This document shows, piece after piece, positions 6,177-32,968 of a stretch of DNA of 36,593 nt (position 1 is its first letter; the number at the start of each line of letters is the position of its first letter). The translations under genes and the position numbers were made by a program. Source of the stretch: an uncultured Tannerella sp. (GTDB lineage: Bacteria; Bacteroidota; Bacteroidia; Bacteroidales; Tannerellaceae); contig CALHPT010000370.1 in the NCBI GenBank assembly GCA_938036405.1, positions 1 through 36,593 on the forward strand, given 5' to 3'. The notes under the pieces are model-generated. The model was not told the origin of the DNA and did not search any database. It saw nothing but the letters and a program-made list of their open reading frames with translations.

Positions 6177-7412
6177 ATGTCCAGCGTCCAACACTCGCCC
6201 CTCGCCGGCCGCCACATCGTGCTCGGCATCACCGGCAGCATCGCCGCCTACAAAGCCTGCACCCTCGTCCGCCTACTCGTGCGCCAAGGCGCCGAAGTGC
6301 AAGTGGTCATCACGCCCGCCGGCAAAGAGTTCGTCACCCCCCTCACCCTCGCCACCCTTTCGCAACGCGCTGTGGTGAGCGAATTTTTCGACCGCCGCGA
6401 CGGCAGTTGGCACAGCCACGTCGATCTCGGTCTGTGGGCCGACGTTTTCGTCATTGCCCCCGCCTCGGCCGCCACGCTCGGCAAGATGGCGCACGGCATC
6501 GCCGACAACATGCTGCTCACCACCTACCTCTCGATGAAGGCCCCCACCTTCGTCGCCCCGGCCATGGACCTCGACATGTATGCGCACCCCGCGACGCAGG
6601 CTAACCTCGATCGCTTGCGCTCCTTCGGCAACAGGATCATCGAGCCGGCCGAGGGCGAGCTGGCCAGCACACTCGTGGGCCGTGGTCGGATGGAGGAGCC
6701 GGAACGCATCATCGATGTGCTCGCGGCTGCACTCAACGACGAGGGCGACCTCACCGGGCGGACCGTCCTCATTACTGCCGGGCCAACCTATGAGAAGATC
6801 GATCCCGTACGCTTCATCGGCAACTATTCCTCGGGTAAGATGGGGTTTGCCCTCGCCGAGGCCTGTGCACGCCGAGGTGCCGAGGTGCGACTCGTAGCCG
6901 GGCCGGTCGCACTGGGCACGATACATCCGCACATCGTCCGTACCGACGTTGAATCGGCCGACGAAATGTATGACGCTGCTACCGCGCTCTTCCCCGAGTG
7001 CGACATCGCCATACTGGCTGCCGCCGTCGCTGATTATAGGCCCCGTACAGCAGCGGAGGCCAAAATCAAACGTGAAGAAACGGGCGACCTCACCCTGCCC
7101 CTCGTCTCCAACCGCGACATAGCCGCCGAACTGGGCCGCCGCAAGCGTCCCGACCAACGCCTCGTGGGCTTCGCACTCGAGACGAACGATGCACGCGCAC
7201 ACGCTGAGGACAAGCTACGGCGTAAACGTCTCGACCTCATTGTCCTCAACTCCCTGCAAGACACGGGCGCTGGCTTCGGCGTCGACACGAACAAGATCAC
7301 CGTGATCGATACCCGCGACAACGCCCGAGATTTCCCGCTCAAGAGCAAGAAAGAGCTGGCCGACGACATCATCGACTGCCTGCTCCCCGTTGTCCCCCCT
7401 AAAAAAGAGTAA
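6177..7412 (+). CDS. coaBC: bifunctional phosphopantothenoylcysteine decarboxylase/ligase
   Basis: GITGSIAAYK, APAMDLDM, ITAGPTYEKIDPVRFIGNYSSGKMG, AAVADY, VGFALET; start ATG at 6177. Confidence 0.96.
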   Translation: MSSVQHSPLAGRHIVLGITGSIAAYKACTLVRLLVRQGAEVQVVITPAGKEFVTPLTLATLSQRAVVSEFFDRRDGSWHSHVDLGLWADVFVIAPASAATLGKMAHGIADNMLLTTYLSMKAPTFVAPAMDLDMYAHPATQANLDRLRSFGNRIIEPAEGELASTLVGRGRMEEPERIIDVLAAALNDEGDLTGRTVLITAGPTYEKIDPVRFIGNYSSGKMGFALAEACARRGAEVRLVAGPVALGTIHPHIVRTDVESADEMYDAATALFPECDIAILAAAVADYRPRTAAEAKIKREETGDLTLPLVSNRDIAAELGRRKRPDQRLVGFALETNDARAHAEDKLRRKRLDLIVLNSLQDTGAGFGVDTNKITVIDTRDNARDFPLKSKKELADDIIDCLLPVVPPKKE

Positions 7413-7415
7413 ACA

Positions 7416-8327
7416 ATGACGAAGCATCGCATCCAACTGGCGCTATTCCTGGTTTTTACCCTCTTCACTGCCGTGGTGGCCCCTGCGCAAGTCTCCGAAT
7501 TGAATGCCCGCCTGACGATCAGTGATAAGATCCAAGGCACGAACAAGGACGTCTTCAAGACCCTTCAAAACGCGCTCAACGAGTTCATCAACAACAGGAA
7601 ATGGACCAACGCGCGATTCGCTCCCAATGAGCGCATCGATTGCACCTTCACGCTCATCGTCAATACGATGGAGGACGACCGTTTTAGCTGTGAACTCCAG
7701 GTGCAAGCCCGCCGCCCCGTCTATAATTCGGCCTACACAACGACGATTCTCAATTTCCGCGACACGAAACTCGATTTCTCTTACACCGAACACGAGCCGC
7801 TTGAGTATAACGAGACGACGCTCCAAAGCAATCTCACCGCCACCATCGTGTTCTATATCTACACCATCCTCGGGATGGATTTCGACAGCTTTTCCCCCAA
7901 AGGCGGCAGCCCATTTCTAAGCCAGGCACAGCAGATTGTCACCCTCGCGCAGTCCGAACCCTCTTGGAACGGCTGGAAGGCCTTCGACAACACAGCCAAT
8001 CGCCATGCCCTCATCACGGCACTCACCGAACCTCAGGGCGGGGGCTTTCGGCAGTTCTGGTACGACTATCACCGCAAGGGGCTCGACGAGATGGCCGCCA
8101 ATCCCGATCGCGGGCGCACGAACATTCTCGCCGCGCTCCCCGCACTGACCGCGCTCAAAAGCGCCCGCCCCACCTCCGTCTTGCTGCAGCTCTTCGCCGA
8201 CACGAAGCTCGACGAGCTGACGGCCATCTATGCCAAGGCGACCACGCAAGAAAAGCAGGAGGGATACAAGCTGCTCTCGAATCTCTTCCCCGGGTCCACC
8301 AACCGTTTCGAGTCGATCCGAAATTGA
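7416..8327 (+). CDS. DUF4835 family secreted protein (linked to T9SS as PorD in some annotations)
   Basis: Signal peptide; ELNAR..., FINNRKWT, ERIDC, YHRKGLD motifs; usual position downstream of coaBC in Bacteroidales. Confidence 0.8.
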   Translation: MTKHRIQLALFLVFTLFTAVVAPAQVSELNARLTISDKIQGTNKDVFKTLQNALNEFINNRKWTNARFAPNERIDCTFTLIVNTMEDDRFSCELQVQARRPVYNSAYTTTILNFRDTKLDFSYTEHEPLEYNETTLQSNLTATIVFYIYTILGMDFDSFSPKGGSPFLSQAQQIVTLAQSEPSWNGWKAFDNTANRHALITALTEPQGGGFRQFWYDYHRKGLDEMAANPDRGRTNILAALPALTALKSARPTSVLLQLFADTKLDELTAIYAKATTQEKQEGYKLLSNLFPGSTNRFESIRN

Positions 8328-8404: not shown

Positions 8405-8692
8405 AAAATACCCCTCGGAACGTGGTGAAATACCGTTCCGAGGTGGTCGTCGATACGTTCGGAACCTCATTAAATACCGCTTCGAGCACAGTGGAATACC
8501 CCTCGGGGTGGTATGAAATACCTCTCGGGACGTCATAAATACCCCTCCGAACATGGTTATGACCACCTCCGAACGGTATTTAATACCCCTCTGAACGTAT
8601 ATAATTACCCTTCGGGACGTAGTTATAACCACCTCGGAACGGTATTAAATACCCTTCGGAACGTATATAAATACCCCTCGGGACCGTATTAA
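8405..8692. repeat. degenerate 22-bp period array (about 13 units), consensus near AAATACCCCTCGGAACGKTAT
   Basis: AATACC recurs about every 22 bp; AATACCGTTCCGAG is the reverse complement of CTCGGAACGGTATT; lies between convergent genes. Confidence 0.9.
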
Positions 8693-13500: not shown

Positions 13501-13643
13501 GCCAATCGAGTACTTGTTTGAGGCTGCGCACACTGCGCGGAGCCAATCGAGTGCTTGTTTGAGGCTGCGCACACTGCGCGGAGCCAATCGAGTACTTGTT
13601 TGAGGCCGCGCACACTGCGCGAAGCAATCGAGCGCTTGATTGG
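13501..13643. repeat. 41-bp tandem array (3.5 units)
   Basis: GCCAATCGAGTACTTGTTTGAGGCTGCGCACACTGCGCGGA at 13501, 13542 and 13583, plus a partial copy at about 13624. Confidence 0.95.
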
Positions 13644-15198: not shown

Positions 15199-15324
15199 TG
15201 CCAGGCCAACTTAGCCGGCGGCCTCTACCGAGTCAGGGAAGTTTGCCGGGTACCAGACCAACTTGTCCGGCAGCCTCTACCGAGGCAGGAAAGTTTGCCG
15301 GGTACCAGGCCAACTTGGCCGGCA
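15199..15324. repeat. 52-bp tandem array (about 2.4 units) with dyads centred on GGTACC
   Basis: CCAGGCCAACTT.GCCGGC.GCCTCTACCGAG.CAGG.AAGTTTGCCGGGTA repeated at 15201, 15253 and 15305. Confidence 0.9.
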
Positions 15325-16444: not shown

Positions 16445-16866
16445 GTTACGAGTGATGAGTTACAAGTTACGAGTGGGGCGGGGTTCCCGCAAGAGCCGCA
16501 AGTGTACCTGCGAGTCTCGCGGCGTTTGTCGGGACGTTTGCGCAGCCTGCGCAAGTCTTGCGGCGTTTGCCGAGACGTTTGCGCAGCCCGCGCAAGTCTT
16601 GTGGCGTTTGCCGGGGCGTTTGCGCAGCCCGCGCAAGTCTTGCGGCGTTTGCCGGGACGTTTGCGCAGCCTGCGCAAGTCTTGCGGCGTTTGCCGGGGCG
16701 TTTGCGCAGCCTGCGCAAGTCTCGCGGTGTTTGCCGGGACGTTTGCGCAGCCTGCGCCGGGTCTCGCGGCATTAACAGAAAAAAGAGGGAGAACCGACCC
16801 GATCTGGAGCGGCTCCCTCTCTCTCTTGCTTCGGTTACTTGCAACTCGTAACTCGTCACTTACAAC
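16445..16866. repeat. composite element: inverted heptamer (GAGTTAC) arms enclosing a 41-bp tandem array (about 6.3 units, 16507-16770) and a hairpin
   Basis: AGTCT registers at 16513, 16554, 16595, 16636, 16677 and 16718; arms 16445-16474 and 16837-16866 are reverse-complementary (23/30). Confidence 0.9.
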
Positions 16867-18349: not shown

Positions 18350-18387
18350 GATTCTGTTTCTTATTTAAGTAGATGTGTATTTGCGGG

Positions 18388-18395
18388 CAAAGATA
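18388..18395 (-). promoter_or_regulatory. -7 promoter box for the CoA-transferase gene
   Basis: CAAAGATA, which is TATCTTTG on the minus strand, about 40 nt upstream of the ATG. Confidence 0.6.
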
Positions 18396-18503
18396 TGGAT
18401 CGGGAGTAATAAGGGAGGGAGGGCTCCGCACAACTCTTTGCCGGAAGTGCCTTTCCGGGCGAATGGCCCTACACTTGCACCCGTTTTCAATCCCCACACA
18501 GAC

Positions 18504-20420
18504 ATGACACATGAATTCCTACGCGTTGCGGCCGGTGTGCCGCGACTGAAGCCGGCCGATTACCTCCACAACGCCGACCAGATCATTGCGATGATGCGCA
18601 AAGCATCCAAACGGGGCGTCGACATCATCGCCTTCCCCCACATGGCCATCATGGGTAGCACCTGCGGCGATTTGCGCTTTGATCAGCGCTACAACGAGGG
18701 AGTGACGTTTGGACTGGTCGGCGTCTTGGCGCTAACGCGCTCCCTCCCCATCGTCGGTATTGTCGGCGCACCGCTCCGCGTGAACGACTGCATACGTGAG
18801 GCCGCCGTCGTCTTCCAGTCCGGGCGGATACTCGGTGCGGTGGTTAACGGCGGGCCGGGCGAACGCTTCCCCACCACAAATGTGCAGATCGCTGGCGTCC
18901 CTTTCAACGTCGGTTCCGAGCTGCGTTTCCGTTGCGAGACCTTCACGTTTGCCGTCACGCTGGGCGATGACCTTTTCCGTCCGGTGTCCAACAGTGCACA
19001 GTGTGCCGCGGAGGGGGCCAGCATGCTCTTCCATCTCGACGCCACGCCTACGCGCGTCGGATTGCACGACGAACTGCGCGACACCGTACGGGTGCACTCC
19101 CGCCGCTGCATCGCCGGTCTCGTCTACGTATCGGCCGGGCATGGCGAATCGTCCACGGACCACTTCTTCGACGGCGAGGCCTTCATCGCTGACCGCGGAC
19201 AGATCGTAGCCGAGTCGGTGCCTTTCTCCGCCGACGAGCAACTCCTCATCAGCGAGGTGGATATCGCGGCCTTGAACCATGACCGCATCCGCAGCCCACA
19301 CTTTACGGGGCGCAACCCCTTCGCACCGCAAGCCCAGCGCAGCCTGCTGGACACGCTCCCCTTCGAGCTGCACACGGACGACAGTCCGCTCAGGCGCACC
19401 ATTCCCCCGCATCCGTTCGTGCCCGAAGAGGCGACTGCATGCGATCGGCGTTGCCGTGAGACGTTCCGCATCCAGTCGCACGCACTGGCCGAACGACTCC
19501 GCCACATCGGCCTGCGGCGCGCCGTGATCGGCATCTCCGGCGGACTCGACTCTACGCTCGCGCTCATGGTCACCATCGCCGCCTTCGACCTCTTGAAGCT
19601 GCCCCGCGAAGGCATCATCGGCGTCACCATGCCCGGCTTTGGCACCTCCGACCGCACGCGCGACAACGCCTTGGCCCTGATGGCGTCCGAGGGCATCACC
19701 CTACGCGAGATCTCCATCCGCGCCGCCTGCGAACAGCACTTCCGCGACATCGGCCACGACGGATCGCCCGACACGACTTACGAGAACGTCCAGGCGCGCG
19801 AACGCACGCAGATCCTCATGGACCTGGCCAACATGGAGGGCGCCTTGGTGGTCGGCACGGGCGACCTCTCGGAGCTGGCCCTCGGCTGGTGCACCTTCAA
19901 CGGCGACCACATGTCGATGTACGGCGTCAACGCGGGCGTGCCCAAGACGCTTGTCGGCGCCGTGGTGCAGTGGTTGGCCCGTCGCACCAAGCACCCCGAG
20001 ACGCGTCGCGCCCTCCTGGACATCTCCGAGACGCCCATCAGCCCCGAGCTGCTTCCGCCCTCCCCCGACGGCGCGCACACGCAGCAGACGGAGCGCACGC
20101 TGGGCCCTTACGAGCTGCACGACTTCTTCCTCTACCGCTTCATGCGCTTTGGCGACAGCCCCCGGCGGCTGCTCTTCCTGGCCGAACAGGCCTTCGGCGG
20201 TCGCTACACCCGCGAGGAGTTGCTCGGTGTGCTCCGCACCTTCCTCCGCCGCTTCTTCGCCCAGCAATTCAAGCGCAACTGCATGCCCGACGGTCCCGCC
20301 ATTGGCTCCATCAGCCTCTCCCCACGCGGCGCCTGGGCGATGCCCTCCGATGCTTCCTCCGCCCTCTGGCTGTGCGCGGTGGAGGAGATGGAGAAAGCGA
20401 TGAAGGAGGGCGAAAAATGA
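18504..20420 (+). CDS. nadE: two-domain NAD+ synthetase with a degenerate glutaminase (nitrilase) domain
   Basis: Synthetase motifs GISGGLDST, ENVQARERT, GTGDLSE, ISPEL and QQFKR are intact; N-terminal CN-hydrolase fold; start MTHEFLRVAA. Confidence 0.93.
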   Translation: MTHEFLRVAAGVPRLKPADYLHNADQIIAMMRKASKRGVDIIAFPHMAIMGSTCGDLRFDQRYNEGVTFGLVGVLALTRSLPIVGIVGAPLRVNDCIREAAVVFQSGRILGAVVNGGPGERFPTTNVQIAGVPFNVGSELRFRCETFTFAVTLGDDLFRPVSNSAQCAAEGASMLFHLDATPTRVGLHDELRDTVRVHSRRCIAGLVYVSAGHGESSTDHFFDGEAFIADRGQIVAESVPFSADEQLLISEVDIAALNHDRIRSPHFTGRNPFAPQAQRSLLDTLPFELHTDDSPLRRTIPPHPFVPEEATACDRRCRETFRIQSHALAERLRHIGLRRAVIGISGGLDSTLALMVTIAAFDLLKLPREGIIGVTMPGFGTSDRTRDNALALMASEGITLREISIRAACEQHFRDIGHDGSPDTTYENVQARERTQILMDLANMEGALVVGTGDLSELALGWCTFNGDHMSMYGVNAGVPKTLVGAVVQWLARRTKHPETRRALLDISETPISPELLPPSPDGAHTQQTERTLGPYELHDFFLYRFMRFGDSPRRLLFLAEQAFGGRYTREELLGVLRTFLRRFFAQQFKRNCMPDGPAIGSISLSPRGAWAMPSDASSALWLCAVEEMEKAMKEGEK

Positions 20421-20481
20421 AGCGAGAGCGGTGAATGATGGGCGCCAGATGATGTGTTCGTCCCTCACGGGGCCGTCTGGA

Positions 20482-20504
20482 GGGCGTATGCGATACGCCC
20501 CTAC
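20482..20504 (-). repeat. GTAG-family REP palindrome
   Basis: Minus strand reads GTAG-GGGCGTAT-CGC-ATACGCCC. Confidence 0.8.
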
Positions 20505-20569
20505 CGCGTTACACGTATTTGCTTTCGATCAACACCGCCCTCCCGCCGTTTTCGGCCCCCTGATCCCTC

Positions 20570-20975
20570 GATCTCGGTCGGGCGAAAACGGTTTCCGAAC
20601 ATCTTCCCGAGATGCTGGTTTGTTACCATTTGGTTTCAGACCCGTGTCTCGGGATTCTTTTTTGATGCAAAACGGAAATGGGAAATCTGGCGTGCAATCT
20701 GATGCAATACAAAATTGTTTCGGATCATATTGCATGCAATATAATGGGATACAAATTTGAGTGGAGTCATATTTCACAGCATATGGCTTTAATCAAATAT
20801 GAATCATGTCGCATTTCATGCAATATATTGTAATTCAAAACGAATTGAATCAATATCGCAAAGCATAAGACTTCATTCAAGATTGAAACAGCTCATAGGT
20901 CGTGCGAAATGAATTGAGTCAAAACTGTTTCAGTTTATATGGCACGCCACTCGATGGCTTACGAAATTGTTTCTC
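20570..20975. repeat. cryptic, highly degenerate, indel-free 42-bp period AT-rich array (about 10 units)
   Basis: A CAAAAxTGTTTC-like register at 20584, 20626, 20668, 20710, 20752, 20794, 20836, 20878, 20920 and 20962; stops in all six frames. Confidence 0.8.
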
Positions 20976-20988
20976 TATACATTTCATG

Positions 20989-20996
20989 TAACTTTG
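20989..20996 (+). promoter_or_regulatory. -7 promoter box for the DUF6261 gene
   Basis: TAACTTTG about 45 nt upstream of the ATG; TTG about 20 nt further upstream, inside the last array unit. Confidence 0.65.
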
Positions 20997-21039
20997 CCTG
21001 AAACAAAATAGAGATCTATCGCTGCGTGTAACACATCTT

Positions 21040-21807
21040 ATGATACAGAAAATGAAACAGATCGAAAGCATCTACATGGCCCGCATTCCGGGCGGGGCGC
21101 ACTTCCTGTTCGTCAACAATGTGTGCGAACGGGCCGAGGCCGACGCCAAGGTCAAGGTCGGCGCTAAGACGGAGCTCGAGACGCTGCGTGCGACGTGCGA
21201 TGAGGAAGGCGCCGCACTGGCGCTGTCGCGAAAAAGCCTCCTCTCGGACACCATCCGCGAGGCGGACAAGCGCCGGGAGCGGCTCTACGTCACGCTCCGC
21301 AACATCGTCAAAGCCTATCGCACCTTCCCCGTCGAGGCCGAAGCTGCGGCGGCGCGGCGGCTCGTGCAACTGCTCAAGGATTACGCCATCAACCCCCGCA
21401 TGCAGCGCGACGCCGAGACGGGACTCATGGTGCACCTCTTGGACGACCTTGCCGGTCAGTACGCCGCGGACGTCGCCACGCTCCGCATCGGGCCACTCGT
21501 CGAGGCCCTCAAGGCGGTCAATGAGCAGCTGCGTAGCACCACAGACCGACGGTCTGACGAGCGGTCGGCGCACGTGGTGGGTCGGCTGCAGAAGGCCCGA
21601 AAGGAGGCCGACAGGGCTTACAGCGCGTTCGTACGCAAGGTCAACGCCCTGGCCGTCGTCGGTGGTGCGGAGGATTACGCCGCGTTCATCGATTACGTCA
21701 ACACCGAGGTGGCCCATTACCACCGCGAGGTCATCCCACCGCGTAAGAAGAAGAACGCCCCGCCCGAGTCCGACCCCACATCTGCCCCCGCCGATAGCGA
21801 GGCGTGA
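21040..21807 (+). CDS. DUF6261 / HagB-like all-helical protein
   Basis: Recognised by pattern only: AHFLF..., SRKSLLSDTIREADKRRE, YAINP...AETGL..LLDDL, ARKEADRAY..FVRKVNA, FIDYVN; basic, Pro-rich tail. The start could be 21052. Confidence 0.75.
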   Translation: MIQKMKQIESIYMARIPGGAHFLFVNNVCERAEADAKVKVGAKTELETLRATCDEEGAALALSRKSLLSDTIREADKRRERLYVTLRNIVKAYRTFPVEAEAAAARRLVQLLKDYAINPRMQRDAETGLMVHLLDDLAGQYAADVATLRIGPLVEALKAVNEQLRSTTDRRSDERSAHVVGRLQKARKEADRAYSAFVRKVNALAVVGGAEDYAAFIDYVNTEVAHYHREVIPPRKKKNAPPESDPTSAPADSEA

Positions 21808-24819: not shown

Positions 24820-25211
24820 CAAACAGGCGCCTGTTTACCCTCGCGCAAGCCTCTGCCGAGGCAGGGAAGTTTGCCTGGTACAAGAAATAGCGGCGATTTA
24901 TCCAGTACCCGGCCAAACTTCGCCGGCGGCCGCAGCCGCCCCCCAAACAGGCGCCTGTTTACCCTCGCGCAAATTGCAGGACATCAAACAGGCGCCTGTT
25001 TACTCTCGCGCAGATTGCAGGACACCAAACAGGCGCCTGTTTGCCTTCGCGCAGGCTGGAGTAACCCAAACAGGCGCCTGTTTACCTTCGCGCAGGCTGG
25101 AGTAACCCAAACAGGCGCCTGTTTGCCTTCGCGCAGGCTGGAGTAATCCAAACAGGCACCTGTTTACCCTCGCGCAGGCTGGAGTAACCCAAACAGGCGC
25201 CTGTTTACCCT
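24820..25211. repeat. 41-bp tandem array with an AAACAGGCGCCTGTTT palindrome, interrupted by a fragment of the 52-bp repeat family
   Basis: CAAACAGG at 24944, 24985, 25026, 25067, 25108, 25149 and 25190, plus 24820; 24850-24930 resembles 15199-15324. Confidence 0.95.
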
Positions 25212-32730: not shown

Positions 32731-32968
32731 ATTCACTCTATAATTGTAGATTGAATATTTTGTCGCATGCCATTCACTCTATAATGCCAGGCTTAATATT
32801 TTGTCGCATGCCATTCACTCTATAATGCCAGGCTTAATGTCAACTCAGTTTTTATTCACTCTATAATGCCAGCGTTAATATCAACTCGATTTTTATTCAC
32901 TCTATAATGCCAGGCTTAATATCCACTCGATTTTTATTCACTCTATAATTGTAGAGTGAATAAAATCG
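32731..32968. repeat. AT-rich 41-bp tandem array (about 6 units)
   Basis: ATTCACTCTATAAT at 32731, 32772, 32813, 32854, 32895 and 32936; the last unit is the dyad ATTCACTCTATAATTGTAGAGTGAAT. Confidence 0.95.

Follow-up and report, generated by a model that had tools for sequence, protein, structure and literature searches.

A gapless, diverged 42-bp tandem array at the promoter of a DUF6261 gene belongs to a class of gene-linked 41/42-bp arrays in Bacteroidia

RESULTS

Positions 20682–21017 of the window, by which we mean the whole stretch of 36,593 nucleotides analysed here from an uncultured Tannerella sp., hold a diverged 42-bp tandem array free of insertions and deletions, with a fainter register reaching back to about 20598, and the array lies between a hairpin-rich leader and the promoter of a DUF6261 gene. 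The period and the palindrome of the unit are conserved, and the unit sequence is not. The occurrence of 41- or 42-base repeats upstream of DUF6261 genes across many Bacteroidia points to an undescribed repeat-plus-gene unit.

The autocorrelation of 20584–20962, scored against 300 dinucleotide shuffles (best shuffled lag: 0.353 at the 95th percentile), gave identities of 0.499 at lag 42 (z 10.5), 0.539 at lag 84 (z 10.6) and 0.482 at lag 126 (z 7.7), and lags 41 (0.266) and 43 (0.271) stayed at background. The array is taken to be indel-free because lag 42 outscored every other lag in 16 of the 17 local 63-bp windows across 20584–20920, the exception being at 20626. The gapless 42-bp register proposed in an earlier, sequence-only reading of this DNA, with its expected peaks at 42 and 84, was thus borne out. 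Adjacent units have 16–27 of 42 bases in common, and the register runs without indels over about 400 bp despite units that are only about 50% alike; together with a difference of exactly 42 bp between orthologous arrays, this agrees with the proposal of that reading that spacing rather than sequence is conserved. TRF with a score threshold of at least 30 did not call the array, and its description as cryptic is therefore fair.

Autocorrelation and unit alignment delimit seven diverged units at 20682–20975 (no strand assigned), followed by a last, promoter-bearing unit at 20976–21017 (+ strand) that keeps the 42-bp register and matches the orthologous units of two relatives, genomes G049 and G004, at 32–33 of 42 positions. 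The earlier count of about 10 units was somewhat generous because 20598–20681, which had supplied two supposed units, is a conserved leader hairpin. The unit starting at 20724 contains a perfect 16-bp palindrome, ATATTGCATGCAATAT (20727–20742, no strand assigned, read from the sequence), and in the better-kept units of G049 the corresponding position is occupied by GATTGCATGCAATC. In several units of the Tannerella genome that holds the window (G000) this dyad has decayed, and the G049 units show it more clearly. Of the dyads once described as 21 bp apart, this palindrome stood, but a 21-bp sub-period was rejected (lag 21 identity 0.24, z −0.9, in 20584–20962), and the two dyads of a unit are unlike in sequence.

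On the left side, a dispersed REP-like palindromic element with a readable hairpin (20446–20505, no strand assigned), located beyond the stop codon that closes the upstream NAD-synthase gene, has matches of 85–100% identity at many places in G000, G004, G049, G050 and G051, in agreement with the REP noticed there previously. The leader begins with a hairpin at 20545–20592 (+ strand), indicated by RNA folding and an inverted repeat in a stretch conserved in G049 and G004, and the fold of 20540–20672 has a minimum free energy of −58 kcal/mol (z −6.0). A long hairpin (20605–20654) and a T-run follow at 20605–20665 (+ strand), where RNA folding and an inverted repeat with 24-nt arms, 75% complementary, suggest a terminator-like end of the upstream transcription unit; this is the best-kept part of the spacer across three genomes, and a simple terminator scan did not call it. 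The leader is conserved and recurs on contig C121 of G000.

The −7 promoter box TAACTTTG (20989–20996, + strand), a TAnnTTTG match, lies inside the last unit, which had been read as abutting it, and 44 bp 5′ of the ATG at 21040. The same box, TAACTTTG, is present in G004, and G049 has TAAATTTG. An ATTG at 20966–20969 (+ strand), 19 bp 5′ of the −7 box, is a candidate −33 element under the spacing rule for Bacteroidota promoters. TAnnTTTG matches number 11 in the window vs. 5.66 expected, all of them just 5′ of a gene start and in the sense direction. A promoter scan found no sigma-70 promoters, and a terminator scan found no terminator-like site on the + strand between the array and the gene. 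A stack of promoters was rejected, the TAnnTTTG box being found in the last unit only and TTTG in the units showing no clear strand bias (18 vs. 11 of 35).

The gene at 21040–21807 (+ strand) encodes 255 amino acids and matches PF19775 (Pfam, E 3.8e-44), in line with its earlier assignment to DUF6261. Its neighbours are genes for NAD synthase, HAD hydrolase and RelA/SpoT, and the module is seated among these housekeeping genes in synteny in three genomes. The predicted structure is all-alpha (pLDDT 86.4), with nine helices and a disordered tail at residues 239–255, and DUF6261 proteins are modelled as elongated helical bundles with a basic or Lys/Pro-rich tail. Foldseek with this model returned nothing at E ≤ 0.001, VIA-align gave Z ≤ 10, which is the noise level for helical bundles, and a PDB sequence search had a best E of 0.14; none of the three revealed a DNA-binding fold or relative. 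Neither NCBIfam nor the ESM Atlas returned a usable match, and no PADLOC or PHROG family matched the protein. Relatives number 3559 at E ≤ 1e-5, and among the 240 homologs listed few are named, the names being ‘DUF6261 family protein’ or ‘hypothetical protein’. The long paralogs have variable Lys/Pro-rich tails with the conserved end GNPDI[T/H/K]LPEE. PF19775 occurs in 1 of 72,556 plasmid records and on two small contigs labelled as phage, a label that is unverified; on these counts, and with no PHROG or PADLOC family, a phage or plasmid element was rejected.

The array is non-coding. No stop-to-stop frame spans it in G000 or G004, as the stops read in all six frames had indicated, and in G049 alone three frames are open over it, on both strands and with no Pfam match among them. 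A coding repeat, against which the period of 41 in most arrays of the same class also counts, was rejected on this evidence, and an intact frame of 14-amino-acid repeats, which the sequence-only reading had named as the mark of a decayed gene, is not conserved in the relatives.

Array, promoter and gene duplicate as one self-contained cassette. Three copies in G049 agree at 95–97% identity over the whole stretch between the first unit and the stop codon, their flanks being unrelated, and at one syntenic site G000 has a different paralog with a different array. The distance from a conserved anchor to the ATG is 389 bp in G000 vs. 347 bp in G049 and G004, which have one unit fewer, the difference being exactly 42 bp. 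Related units occur on contig C121 of G000 and at three places in G049, so that the dispersed copies expected of MITE minisatellites are present; the C121 copy (6980–7316) is a sister of the array and its leader without the gene.

Arrays are linked to DUF6261 genes well beyond this locus. G000 has 36 DUF6261 genes and 276 TRF arrays of 40–43 bp, which make up 46.5 kb (about 2% of the genome) and fall into 179 sequence families. A TRF array ends 50–356 bp upstream of 18 of the 36 genes. A contig end is no more than 300 bp away from 13 of the 36, and among the DUF6261 genes with at least 300 bp of upstream sequence, autocorrelation found periodicity upstream of 18 of 23 vs. 121 of 999 random genes. 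G049, a complete relative, has arrays at 48 of 55 DUF6261 genes (46 by autocorrelation and two with period 40), and seven have none; 10.9% of its random 600-bp windows pass autocorrelation, and TRF placed an array upstream of 35 and downstream of only four of the 55 genes. The G016 sample has arrays at 8 of 12 DUF6261 genes, and 8 of its 12 arrays adjoin these genes. Across seven other genera (locus GC 29–48%), periodicity was found at 8 of 13 DUF6261 genes, or 10 of 13 with two 83-bp dimer arrays, so that three to five have no array, vs. 1 of 479 random genes and 0 of 13 in the off-lag control; 400 kb from each of two out-of-genus genomes (800 kb in total) held no array of 40–43 bp. Prevotella nigrescens NZ_CP082843.1 is a named carrier. 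Periodic flanks are thus strongly enriched at DUF6261 genes relative to random genes, and the suspected module of DUF6261 and a phased array recurs in the Tannerella lineage and in other genera. No conserved partner or neighbour gene was found across these loci, and some out-of-genus copies adjoin genes of defence type (GmrSD_N, HSDR_N, TaqI_C and AAA_15).

Most arrays of G000 and G049 do not adjoin a DUF6261 gene, and arrays occupy every type of intergenic gap, 3′–3′ gaps included. Nineteen of the 276 arrays of G000 adjoin DUF6261 genes, and 31 of the remaining 257 share a family with one that does. By best score, 194 arrays have a period of 41/42, four of 31–32, three of 51–53 and some of 21/22; the present array falls into one class with the 41-bp arrays of the window, a kinship that had been suggested. 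Perfect palindrome arms of at least 6 bp occur in 37 of 54 units vs. 1 of 54 shuffled units, and 76 of 87 double changes in the arms preserve Watson–Crick pairing. The period is held across families of 29–59% GC while the sequence is replaced, and once protein identity falls below about 80%, unit sequences are unrelated (0 of 1417 pairs related). Relative to the gene the units show no strand bias (AT skew 24 vs. 21, GC skew 24 vs. 23). In many arrays the units are 90–97% alike and must therefore still be exchanging. A motif common to all arrays was rejected, only A-tracts and TGCAA being modestly enriched.

DISCUSSION

Our preferred reading, held tentatively, is that the array is an evenly spaced DNA-level docking platform beside the promoter, possibly bound by DUF6261 itself. 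The array would be a decayed copy of a conserved cis-element belonging to DUF6261 genes, which would consist of head-to-tail units of 41 or 42 bp (four helical turns), each containing a short palindrome and, in most cases, an A/T tract, and would sit directly 5′ of the gene's own promoter. The units may offer evenly spaced docking sites on the same face of the helix, as palindromes or extruded hairpins, on which a protein may assemble cooperatively and set the activity of the adjoining promoter. DUF6261 would be the most economical candidate because it is predicted to form an elongated bundle of helices whose tail is basic or Lys/Pro-rich, and because it is the sole gene that always travels with the array. 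A position at the DNA level is supported by the −7 box 3′ of the array, the lack of strand bias among the units and the non-coding nature of the array, which probably acts as DNA, a role as RNA being improbable. The compensatory changes in the palindrome arms are explained by base pairing in hairpins, or by template-switch correction, at least as well as by a fixed half-site and probably better, and the unrelated unit sequences below about 80% protein identity sit uneasily with specific recognition by the protein that the gene encodes. The model is, moreover, a generic helical bundle for which the structure and sequence searches gave no DNA-binding relative. DUF6261 genes that have no array (7 of 55 in G049, 3–5 of 13 outside the genus) and arrays that have no gene count against a docking platform.

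The sopC centromere of the F plasmid, bound by SopB, is a tandem array beside the gene of its binder, in which every unit spans about 43 bp and includes an inverted repeat; in parC/ParR of plasmid R1, array and promoter overlap as well, and the binder thereby regulates itself. As in these systems, tandem units with inverted repeats here adjoin the gene of a candidate binder, the binding being putative. Unlike in these systems, there is no ParA, ParB or ParR gene, the adjacent gene matching only PF19775 in Pfam, and unlike plasmid centromeres the DUF6261 module is chromosomal, has 36–55 copies per genome and has units private to each copy. A plasmid partition centromere was rejected given the absence of a ParA ATPase or ParB neighbour, the housekeeping setting and the single plasmid record.

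If DUF6261 does bind or make the arrays, this would amount to a chromosomal nucleoprotein or repeat-propagating system of a new type. To our knowledge, few bacterial cis-elements combine a fixed geometry (41/42 bp, one palindrome per unit) with free sequence. The DUF6261 family is large, has its members in human oral and gut Bacteroidales and gains a direct experimental handle from the array geometry, and the arrays break assemblies and therefore matter for the quality of metagenome-assembled genomes and for studies of strain variation. Searches of the literature found nothing relevant on DUF6261 and no 41- or 42-bp intergenic tandem arrays for Bacteroidales, Bacteroides or Tannerella in general, and the literature on hagB/hagC, including the available portion of one paper (PMC13390158), yielded no upstream tandem array. 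As far as the accessible parts of the sources go, the only published precedent found is the 41-nt repeats of Porphyromonas gingivalis MITEs, which are described with no gene link.

That precedent underlies an alternative we regard as unlikely, in which the arrays, comparable to the repeats that MITEs carry in P. gingivalis, would be hairpin minisatellites of a selfish or neutral kind. Slippage driven by the hairpins would generate them at a preferred length, and they would hitch-hike with the cassette and do nothing for the gene. In the available text of the two reports, the 464/PgRS elements of P. gingivalis carry 41-nt repeats, strain W83 has 41-, 23- and 22-nt repeats (PMC4596501), and Repeat C of MITEPgRS reaches 14 copies (PMC2575886). 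Like MITEPgRS (MITE464) Repeat C and BrickBuilt, the present arrays are intergenic tandem repeats (41-nt and 22–23-nt there) in related oral Bacteroidales, variable in copy number and associated with assembly gaps; the published repeats, however, as described in the same excerpts, are contained in elements whose terminal inverted repeats are shared with an insertion sequence, and form one sequence family each (PMC2575886, PMC4596501), whereas here there are 179 families, no clear terminal inverted repeats around the present array and a directional link to one protein family. The sole inverted pair flanking the array (20628–20639 with 20998–21009) is a copy of the unit's own motif. A minisatellite origin accords with the many families in G000 that have so few members beside DUF6261 genes, with arrays in all kinds of intergenic gap, with the gene-less sister copy on C121 and with the fast turnover of units, and template switching could produce the compensatory changes. 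It does not account for the confinement of arrays to the DUF6261 genes in genomes with one to three such genes (8–10 of 13 vs. 1 of 479; none in 800 kb), for their upstream placement in G049 (35 vs. 4 of 55), for a period kept across 29–59% GC while sequence is replaced or for a decayed 42-bp array with no indels.

A function of the array as RNA, either as a repeat-RNA partner as in type III toxin–antitoxin systems or as a structured 5′ hairpin leader controlling the gene, appears rather improbable. In type III systems (ToxIN, CptIN, TenpIN and AbiQ), often found in defence islands, a short array with a unit length typical of the family and a private sequence lies directly 5′ of a protein gene. 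The DUF6261 arrays are likewise tandem, directly 5′ of a protein gene, conserved in unit length and private in sequence, and one hairpin per unit with compensatory changes, the defence-type neighbours of some out-of-genus copies and the multi-copy nature of the family point the same way. Against this, the sole −7 box lies 3′ of the array and a strong hairpin with a T-run lies 5′ of it, and the duplicated cassette begins at the first unit and therefore has no room for an upstream promoter. Unlike in type III systems, no terminator-like site was called on the + strand between array and gene, arrays reach 13 units, and DUF6261 is all-alpha and not ToxN-like; a ToxN, AbiQ, CptN or TenpN toxin was rejected, with PF19775 the only Pfam match, no PADLOC family and an all-alpha model. 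The absence of strand bias also speaks against an RNA, and a known RNA family was rejected, Rfam giving no match at E ≤ 1 except a chance microRNA row.

We likewise consider it quite doubtful that the array is a copy-number rheostat, in which gain or loss of units would alter the distance or DNA shape 5′ of the promoter, a host factor would read this change, and expression of a variable family would be switched or tuned from cell to cell. Orthologous arrays that differ by exactly one unit, the still-exchanging units, the 36–55 diverged paralogs with variable tails on the long ones and four-turn units that hold the helical face as their number changes would all suit such a device. It leaves unexplained why the period is 41/42 bp (some 21/22) rather than three or five turns (31–32 in four arrays and 51–53 in three vs. 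194) and why the palindrome is retained. A rheostat is compatible with the docking platform.

Least probable, in our judgement, is that DUF6261 makes or spreads the arrays as a four-turn molecular ruler that duplicates palindrome-bearing DNA beside its gene and, at high copy number, elsewhere, in a gene–repeat symbiosis resembling RAYT/REPIN but tandem. In REPIN–RAYT systems, short palindromic repeats make up a separate family for every protein paralog and occur beside the gene and dispersed between genes; the present repeats are likewise found beside the gene and in intergenic DNA, but unlike REPINs they form strict head-to-tail arrays of fixed period, and DUF6261 shows neither the family nor the fold of HUH transposases. 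Such an activity would explain a conserved period with outright replaced unit sequences, the confinement of arrays to the gene where a genome has one to three copies and the rise of array number with gene number. Across a comparison of only six mutually non-independent genomes, G020 has no DUF6261 gene and no array in 165 kb, G016 has 15 genes and four arrays away from genes in 387 kb, G000 has 36 genes and 276 arrays, and G049 has 55 genes and 163 arrays in 1.2 Mb.

A cryptic 42-bp array in front of the DUF6261 gene

The sequence preceding the DUF6261 gene (21040-21807; PF19775, E 3.8e-44) fits a DNA-level, promoter-adjacent row of evenly spaced palindromic sites that is part of a DUF6261 cassette. 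The spacer between this gene and the NAD-synthase gene (18375-20420) looked random by eye and contained no repeats detectable by Tandem Repeats Finder (TRF) at a score of ≥30. Autocorrelation over 20584-20962, compared with 300 dinucleotide shuffles, gave identities of 0.499 (z 10.5), 0.539 (z 10.6) and 0.482 (z 7.7) at lags of 42, 84 and 126, respectively; lags 41 (0.266) and 43 (0.271) remained at background, and lag 21 gave 0.24 (z -0.9). The best local lag was 42 in 16 of 17 windows, indicating that the register is indel-free, as the sequence-only reading had proposed. That reading had counted about ten units; stacking yielded seven (20682-20975) plus an eighth (20976-21017), and the two apparent units 5' of 20682 turned out to be a conserved leader. 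The claimed lack of a coding frame held, no stop-to-stop frame spanning the array in this genome.

Read from the NAD-synthase stop codon onwards, the spacer comprises a dispersed palindromic element, two hairpins, the array, a promoter box and the ATG, in this order. The palindromic element (20446-20505) contains GGAGGGCGTATGCGATACGCCCCTAC and recurs many times in each of five or more congeneric genomes taken together, including copies past the terminators downstream of two cassettes in the complete genome of a same-genus relative (G049). Two hairpins in the leader are strong (20545-20592 and 20605-20654); a T-run follows the second, which was not picked up by a simple terminator scan, and 20540-20672 folds at -58 kcal/mol (z -6.0). 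The motif TAnnTTTG, which we take to be the -7 consensus of Bacteroidota promoters, occurs 11 times in the window versus 5.66 expected, and all 11 matches lie just 5' of gene starts in the sense direction; the match at 20989-20996 (TAACTTTG), 44 bp before the ATG, was therefore regarded as a -7 box. It is located inside the last unit, placing the array upstream of the core promoter.

Association of arrays with DUF6261 genes

In the genome holding the window (G000), a TRF array ended 50-356 bp upstream of 18 of the 36 PF19775 genes. Among the 23 with ≥300 bp of upstream sequence (the other 13 lie <300 bp from a contig end), 18 passed the autocorrelation test, compared with 121 of 999 random genes. 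In G049 (one contig, 3.01 Mb), TRF arrays were present upstream (within 480 bp) of 35 of 55 DUF6261 genes and downstream of four; 46 passed autocorrelation and two more showed a period of 40, versus 10.9% of random windows. The predicted enrichment of periodic flanks was thus found in both genomes. In two further G049 paralogs, 113395 and 2797617, 7-8-bp repeats (AACAACTA, AAACACCT) run up to the start codon in place of a 41/42-bp array.

Length-matched controls somewhat weaken this link within the lineage. TRF arrays and autocorrelation passes were found, respectively, in 29% and 29% of non-DUF versus 80% and 100% of DUF-upstream gaps of 300-500 bp, in 54% and 63% versus 69% and 92% at 500-800 bp, and in 45% and 49% versus 72% and 88% above 800 bp. 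Gaps between 3' ends are also filled by arrays. Such occurrences would suit hitch-hiking minisatellites, an explanation that we consider unlikely. Where a genome has fewer copies, the link becomes far tighter. A 387-kb sample of another genome (G016) was centred on 12 of its 15 DUF6261 genes; eight of these 12 had an array upstream, accounting for 8 of the 12 arrays in the sample. Few genomes outside the genus have DUF6261 (5 of 300 Bacteroidia, 1-3 copies each); 8 of 13 out-of-genus genes, from seven genera with locus GC of 29-48%, passed autocorrelation and two more had 83-bp dimer arrays, versus 0/13 in off-lag controls, 1/12 in downstream regions and 0/72, 1/201 and 0/206 random genes. TRF found no 40-43- or 81-85-bp arrays in 400 kb of each of two out-of-genus genomes, nor in 165 kb of G020, a genome with no DUF6261 match. 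In Prevotella nigrescens (NZ_CP082843.1), 3.6 units of 41 bp with TGCCGAAGTTCGGCA directly precede an annotated DUF6261 gene, and one small phage-labelled contig carries the gene with no array. On a contig titled as a spirochaete (MAG: Treponema sp., JAFLSN010000021.1), a DUF6261 gene of 46% identity is preceded by a 42/84-bp array, which may reflect a binning error or transfer.

Conserved and replaced features of the units

Of 54 DUF6261-upstream units, 37 held a perfect inverted repeat whose arms were ≥6 bp long, versus 1 of 54 shuffled ones. Unit similarity of 0.70 was reached in 7 of 8 pairs above 90% protein identity, in 3 of 3 at 80-90% and in 0 of 1417 below 80%; unit sequences are thus related between recent copies only, and the period survives at all protein identities, in line with the earlier proposal that spacing rather than sequence is conserved. 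Across 268 arrays with 1176 distinct units, both arm bases were changed in 87 of 7839 arm pairs, Watson-Crick pairing being kept in 76 of these (87%). The double-change rate was 1.11%, against 0.29% expected under independence and 0.70% in slid controls, suggesting either selected pairing or template-switch correction of imperfect palindromes. In G000, 83% of units folded better than their shuffled counterparts. The DUF6261-upstream units favour neither strand with respect to the gene (24 with positive and 21 with negative AT skew; 24 versus 23 for GC skew), and a role of the array as RNA seems rather improbable.

The locus in relatives and cassette replacement

Gene order around the array is the same in G000, G049 and a second relative, G004. 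All three genomes are well alignable over the leader, the promoter-bearing unit and the gene's 5' leader (30-36 of 42 matches per unit), and inner units show no one-to-one alignment. Leader and ATG are 389 bp apart in G000 and 347 bp apart in each of the relatives, the difference being exactly one unit; a rheostat based on unit number and sensed by a host factor could account for such a step, and is the least probable of the three alternatives. Units of G049 are cleaner (GATTGCATGCAATC ... ACAAAACTGTTTC, alternating at 84 bp), and the G000 array is a decayed version of the locus. The orthologous G049 array (locus L012, 2888-3318) holds three stop-to-stop open frames of 116-120 aa on both strands, one with the 14-aa repeat NCFGLDCMQSDAIQ; none has a Pfam match, and neither G000 nor G004 retains any of them, so that the intact 14-aa-repeat frame sought in relatives as the mark of a decayed gene was open in G049 alone. 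G004 (locus L013, ~930-1500) has an extra ~500 bp past the NAD-synthase stop that is absent from G000 and G049 in the alignment. The genus was assigned to Tannerella: a Tannerella sp. oral taxon 808 record contains an ortholog at 89% identity, and the names of clusters are in agreement.

Three of the G049 copies share 95-97% identity across a ~1.45-kb stretch that opens with the first unit of the array and extends to the stop codon; their flanking sequences are unrelated. At one such site, G000 has flanks 92-95% identical to those of G049 and a different paralog and array. A sister of the array described here with a similar leader start, at 6980-7316 of G000 contig C121, has no DUF6261 gene. 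Neighbour genes vary between loci, and several out-of-genus copies stand among defence-type genes.

The DUF6261 protein and a proposed scenario

The predicted structure (pLDDT 86.4) is all-alpha, an elongated bundle that includes one helix of 58 residues and a tail that is disordered. Foldseek gave no matches at E≤0.001, and VIA-align scores to generic helical bundles (Z≤10) were within noise for that class. PDB sequences, NCBIfam, PADLOC, PHROGs and Atlas yielded nothing informative, and no signal peptide was apparent by eye. Long G049 paralogs (~305-350 aa; e.g. genes 564544, 1048271 and 2411423) carry PKEPKQPKDPK-like Lys/Pro-rich repeats near the end and close with the conserved motif GNPDI[T/H/K]LPEE; the 255-aa window protein lacks both.

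We propose that a protein may assemble on the row of palindromic sites, and that this protein could be DUF6261 itself, because there is no other conserved partner and the module persists across hosts of very different composition. Compensatory evolution of the palindromes, rapid replacement of unit sequences, the many gene-less arrays and the absence of a DNA-binding signature in DUF6261 weigh against such docking on DNA.

In Porphyromonas gingivalis, 41-nt and 22-23-nt tandem repeats lie inside MITE-like elements (Klein 2015 PMC4596501; Naito 2008 PMC2575886); unlike for the arrays described here, the relevant parts of these papers do not connect them with any protein family. Literature searches found DUF6261 arrays in no paper. 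The window adds a cryptic decayed example, an extreme proliferation of arrays within Tannerella, cassettes that are duplicated and replaced, a curve of protein identity versus unit similarity, the absent strand polarity of units and a compensation count.

Array load of the genome

G000 (2.38 Mb, 382 contigs, 57.8% GC) contained 469 repeat clusters at TRF score ≥50. By the best-scoring period per cluster, 105 had a period of 41 bp, 89 of 42, 14 of 40, 10 of 43, 40 of 21-22, 40 of 82-84, 17 of 123-126, four of 31-32 and three of 51-53 bp. A 40-43-bp row was present in 276 clusters (46.5 kb in total, median 3.5 copies), 258 of them clear of crude gene calls, and these arrays fell into 179 sequence families. 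The window holds five more 41- or 42-bp arrays, all distinct in sequence (814-911, 13501-13632, 16513-16757, 24943-25211 and 32763-32949), and others at 8495-8684, 2221-2458 and 15201-15324 with periods of 22/44/66, 87 and 52 bp; these occupy 5', 3' and convergent intergenic gaps. The array at 24943-25211 lies between two convergent genes with no DUF6261 gene, and the first 23 bases of its consensus unit are shared with an array before another DUF6261 gene (contig C99 of G000, 7658-8075). Many arrays begin at contig base 1, and arrays appear to be a main cause of the fragmentation of G000 into 382 contigs.
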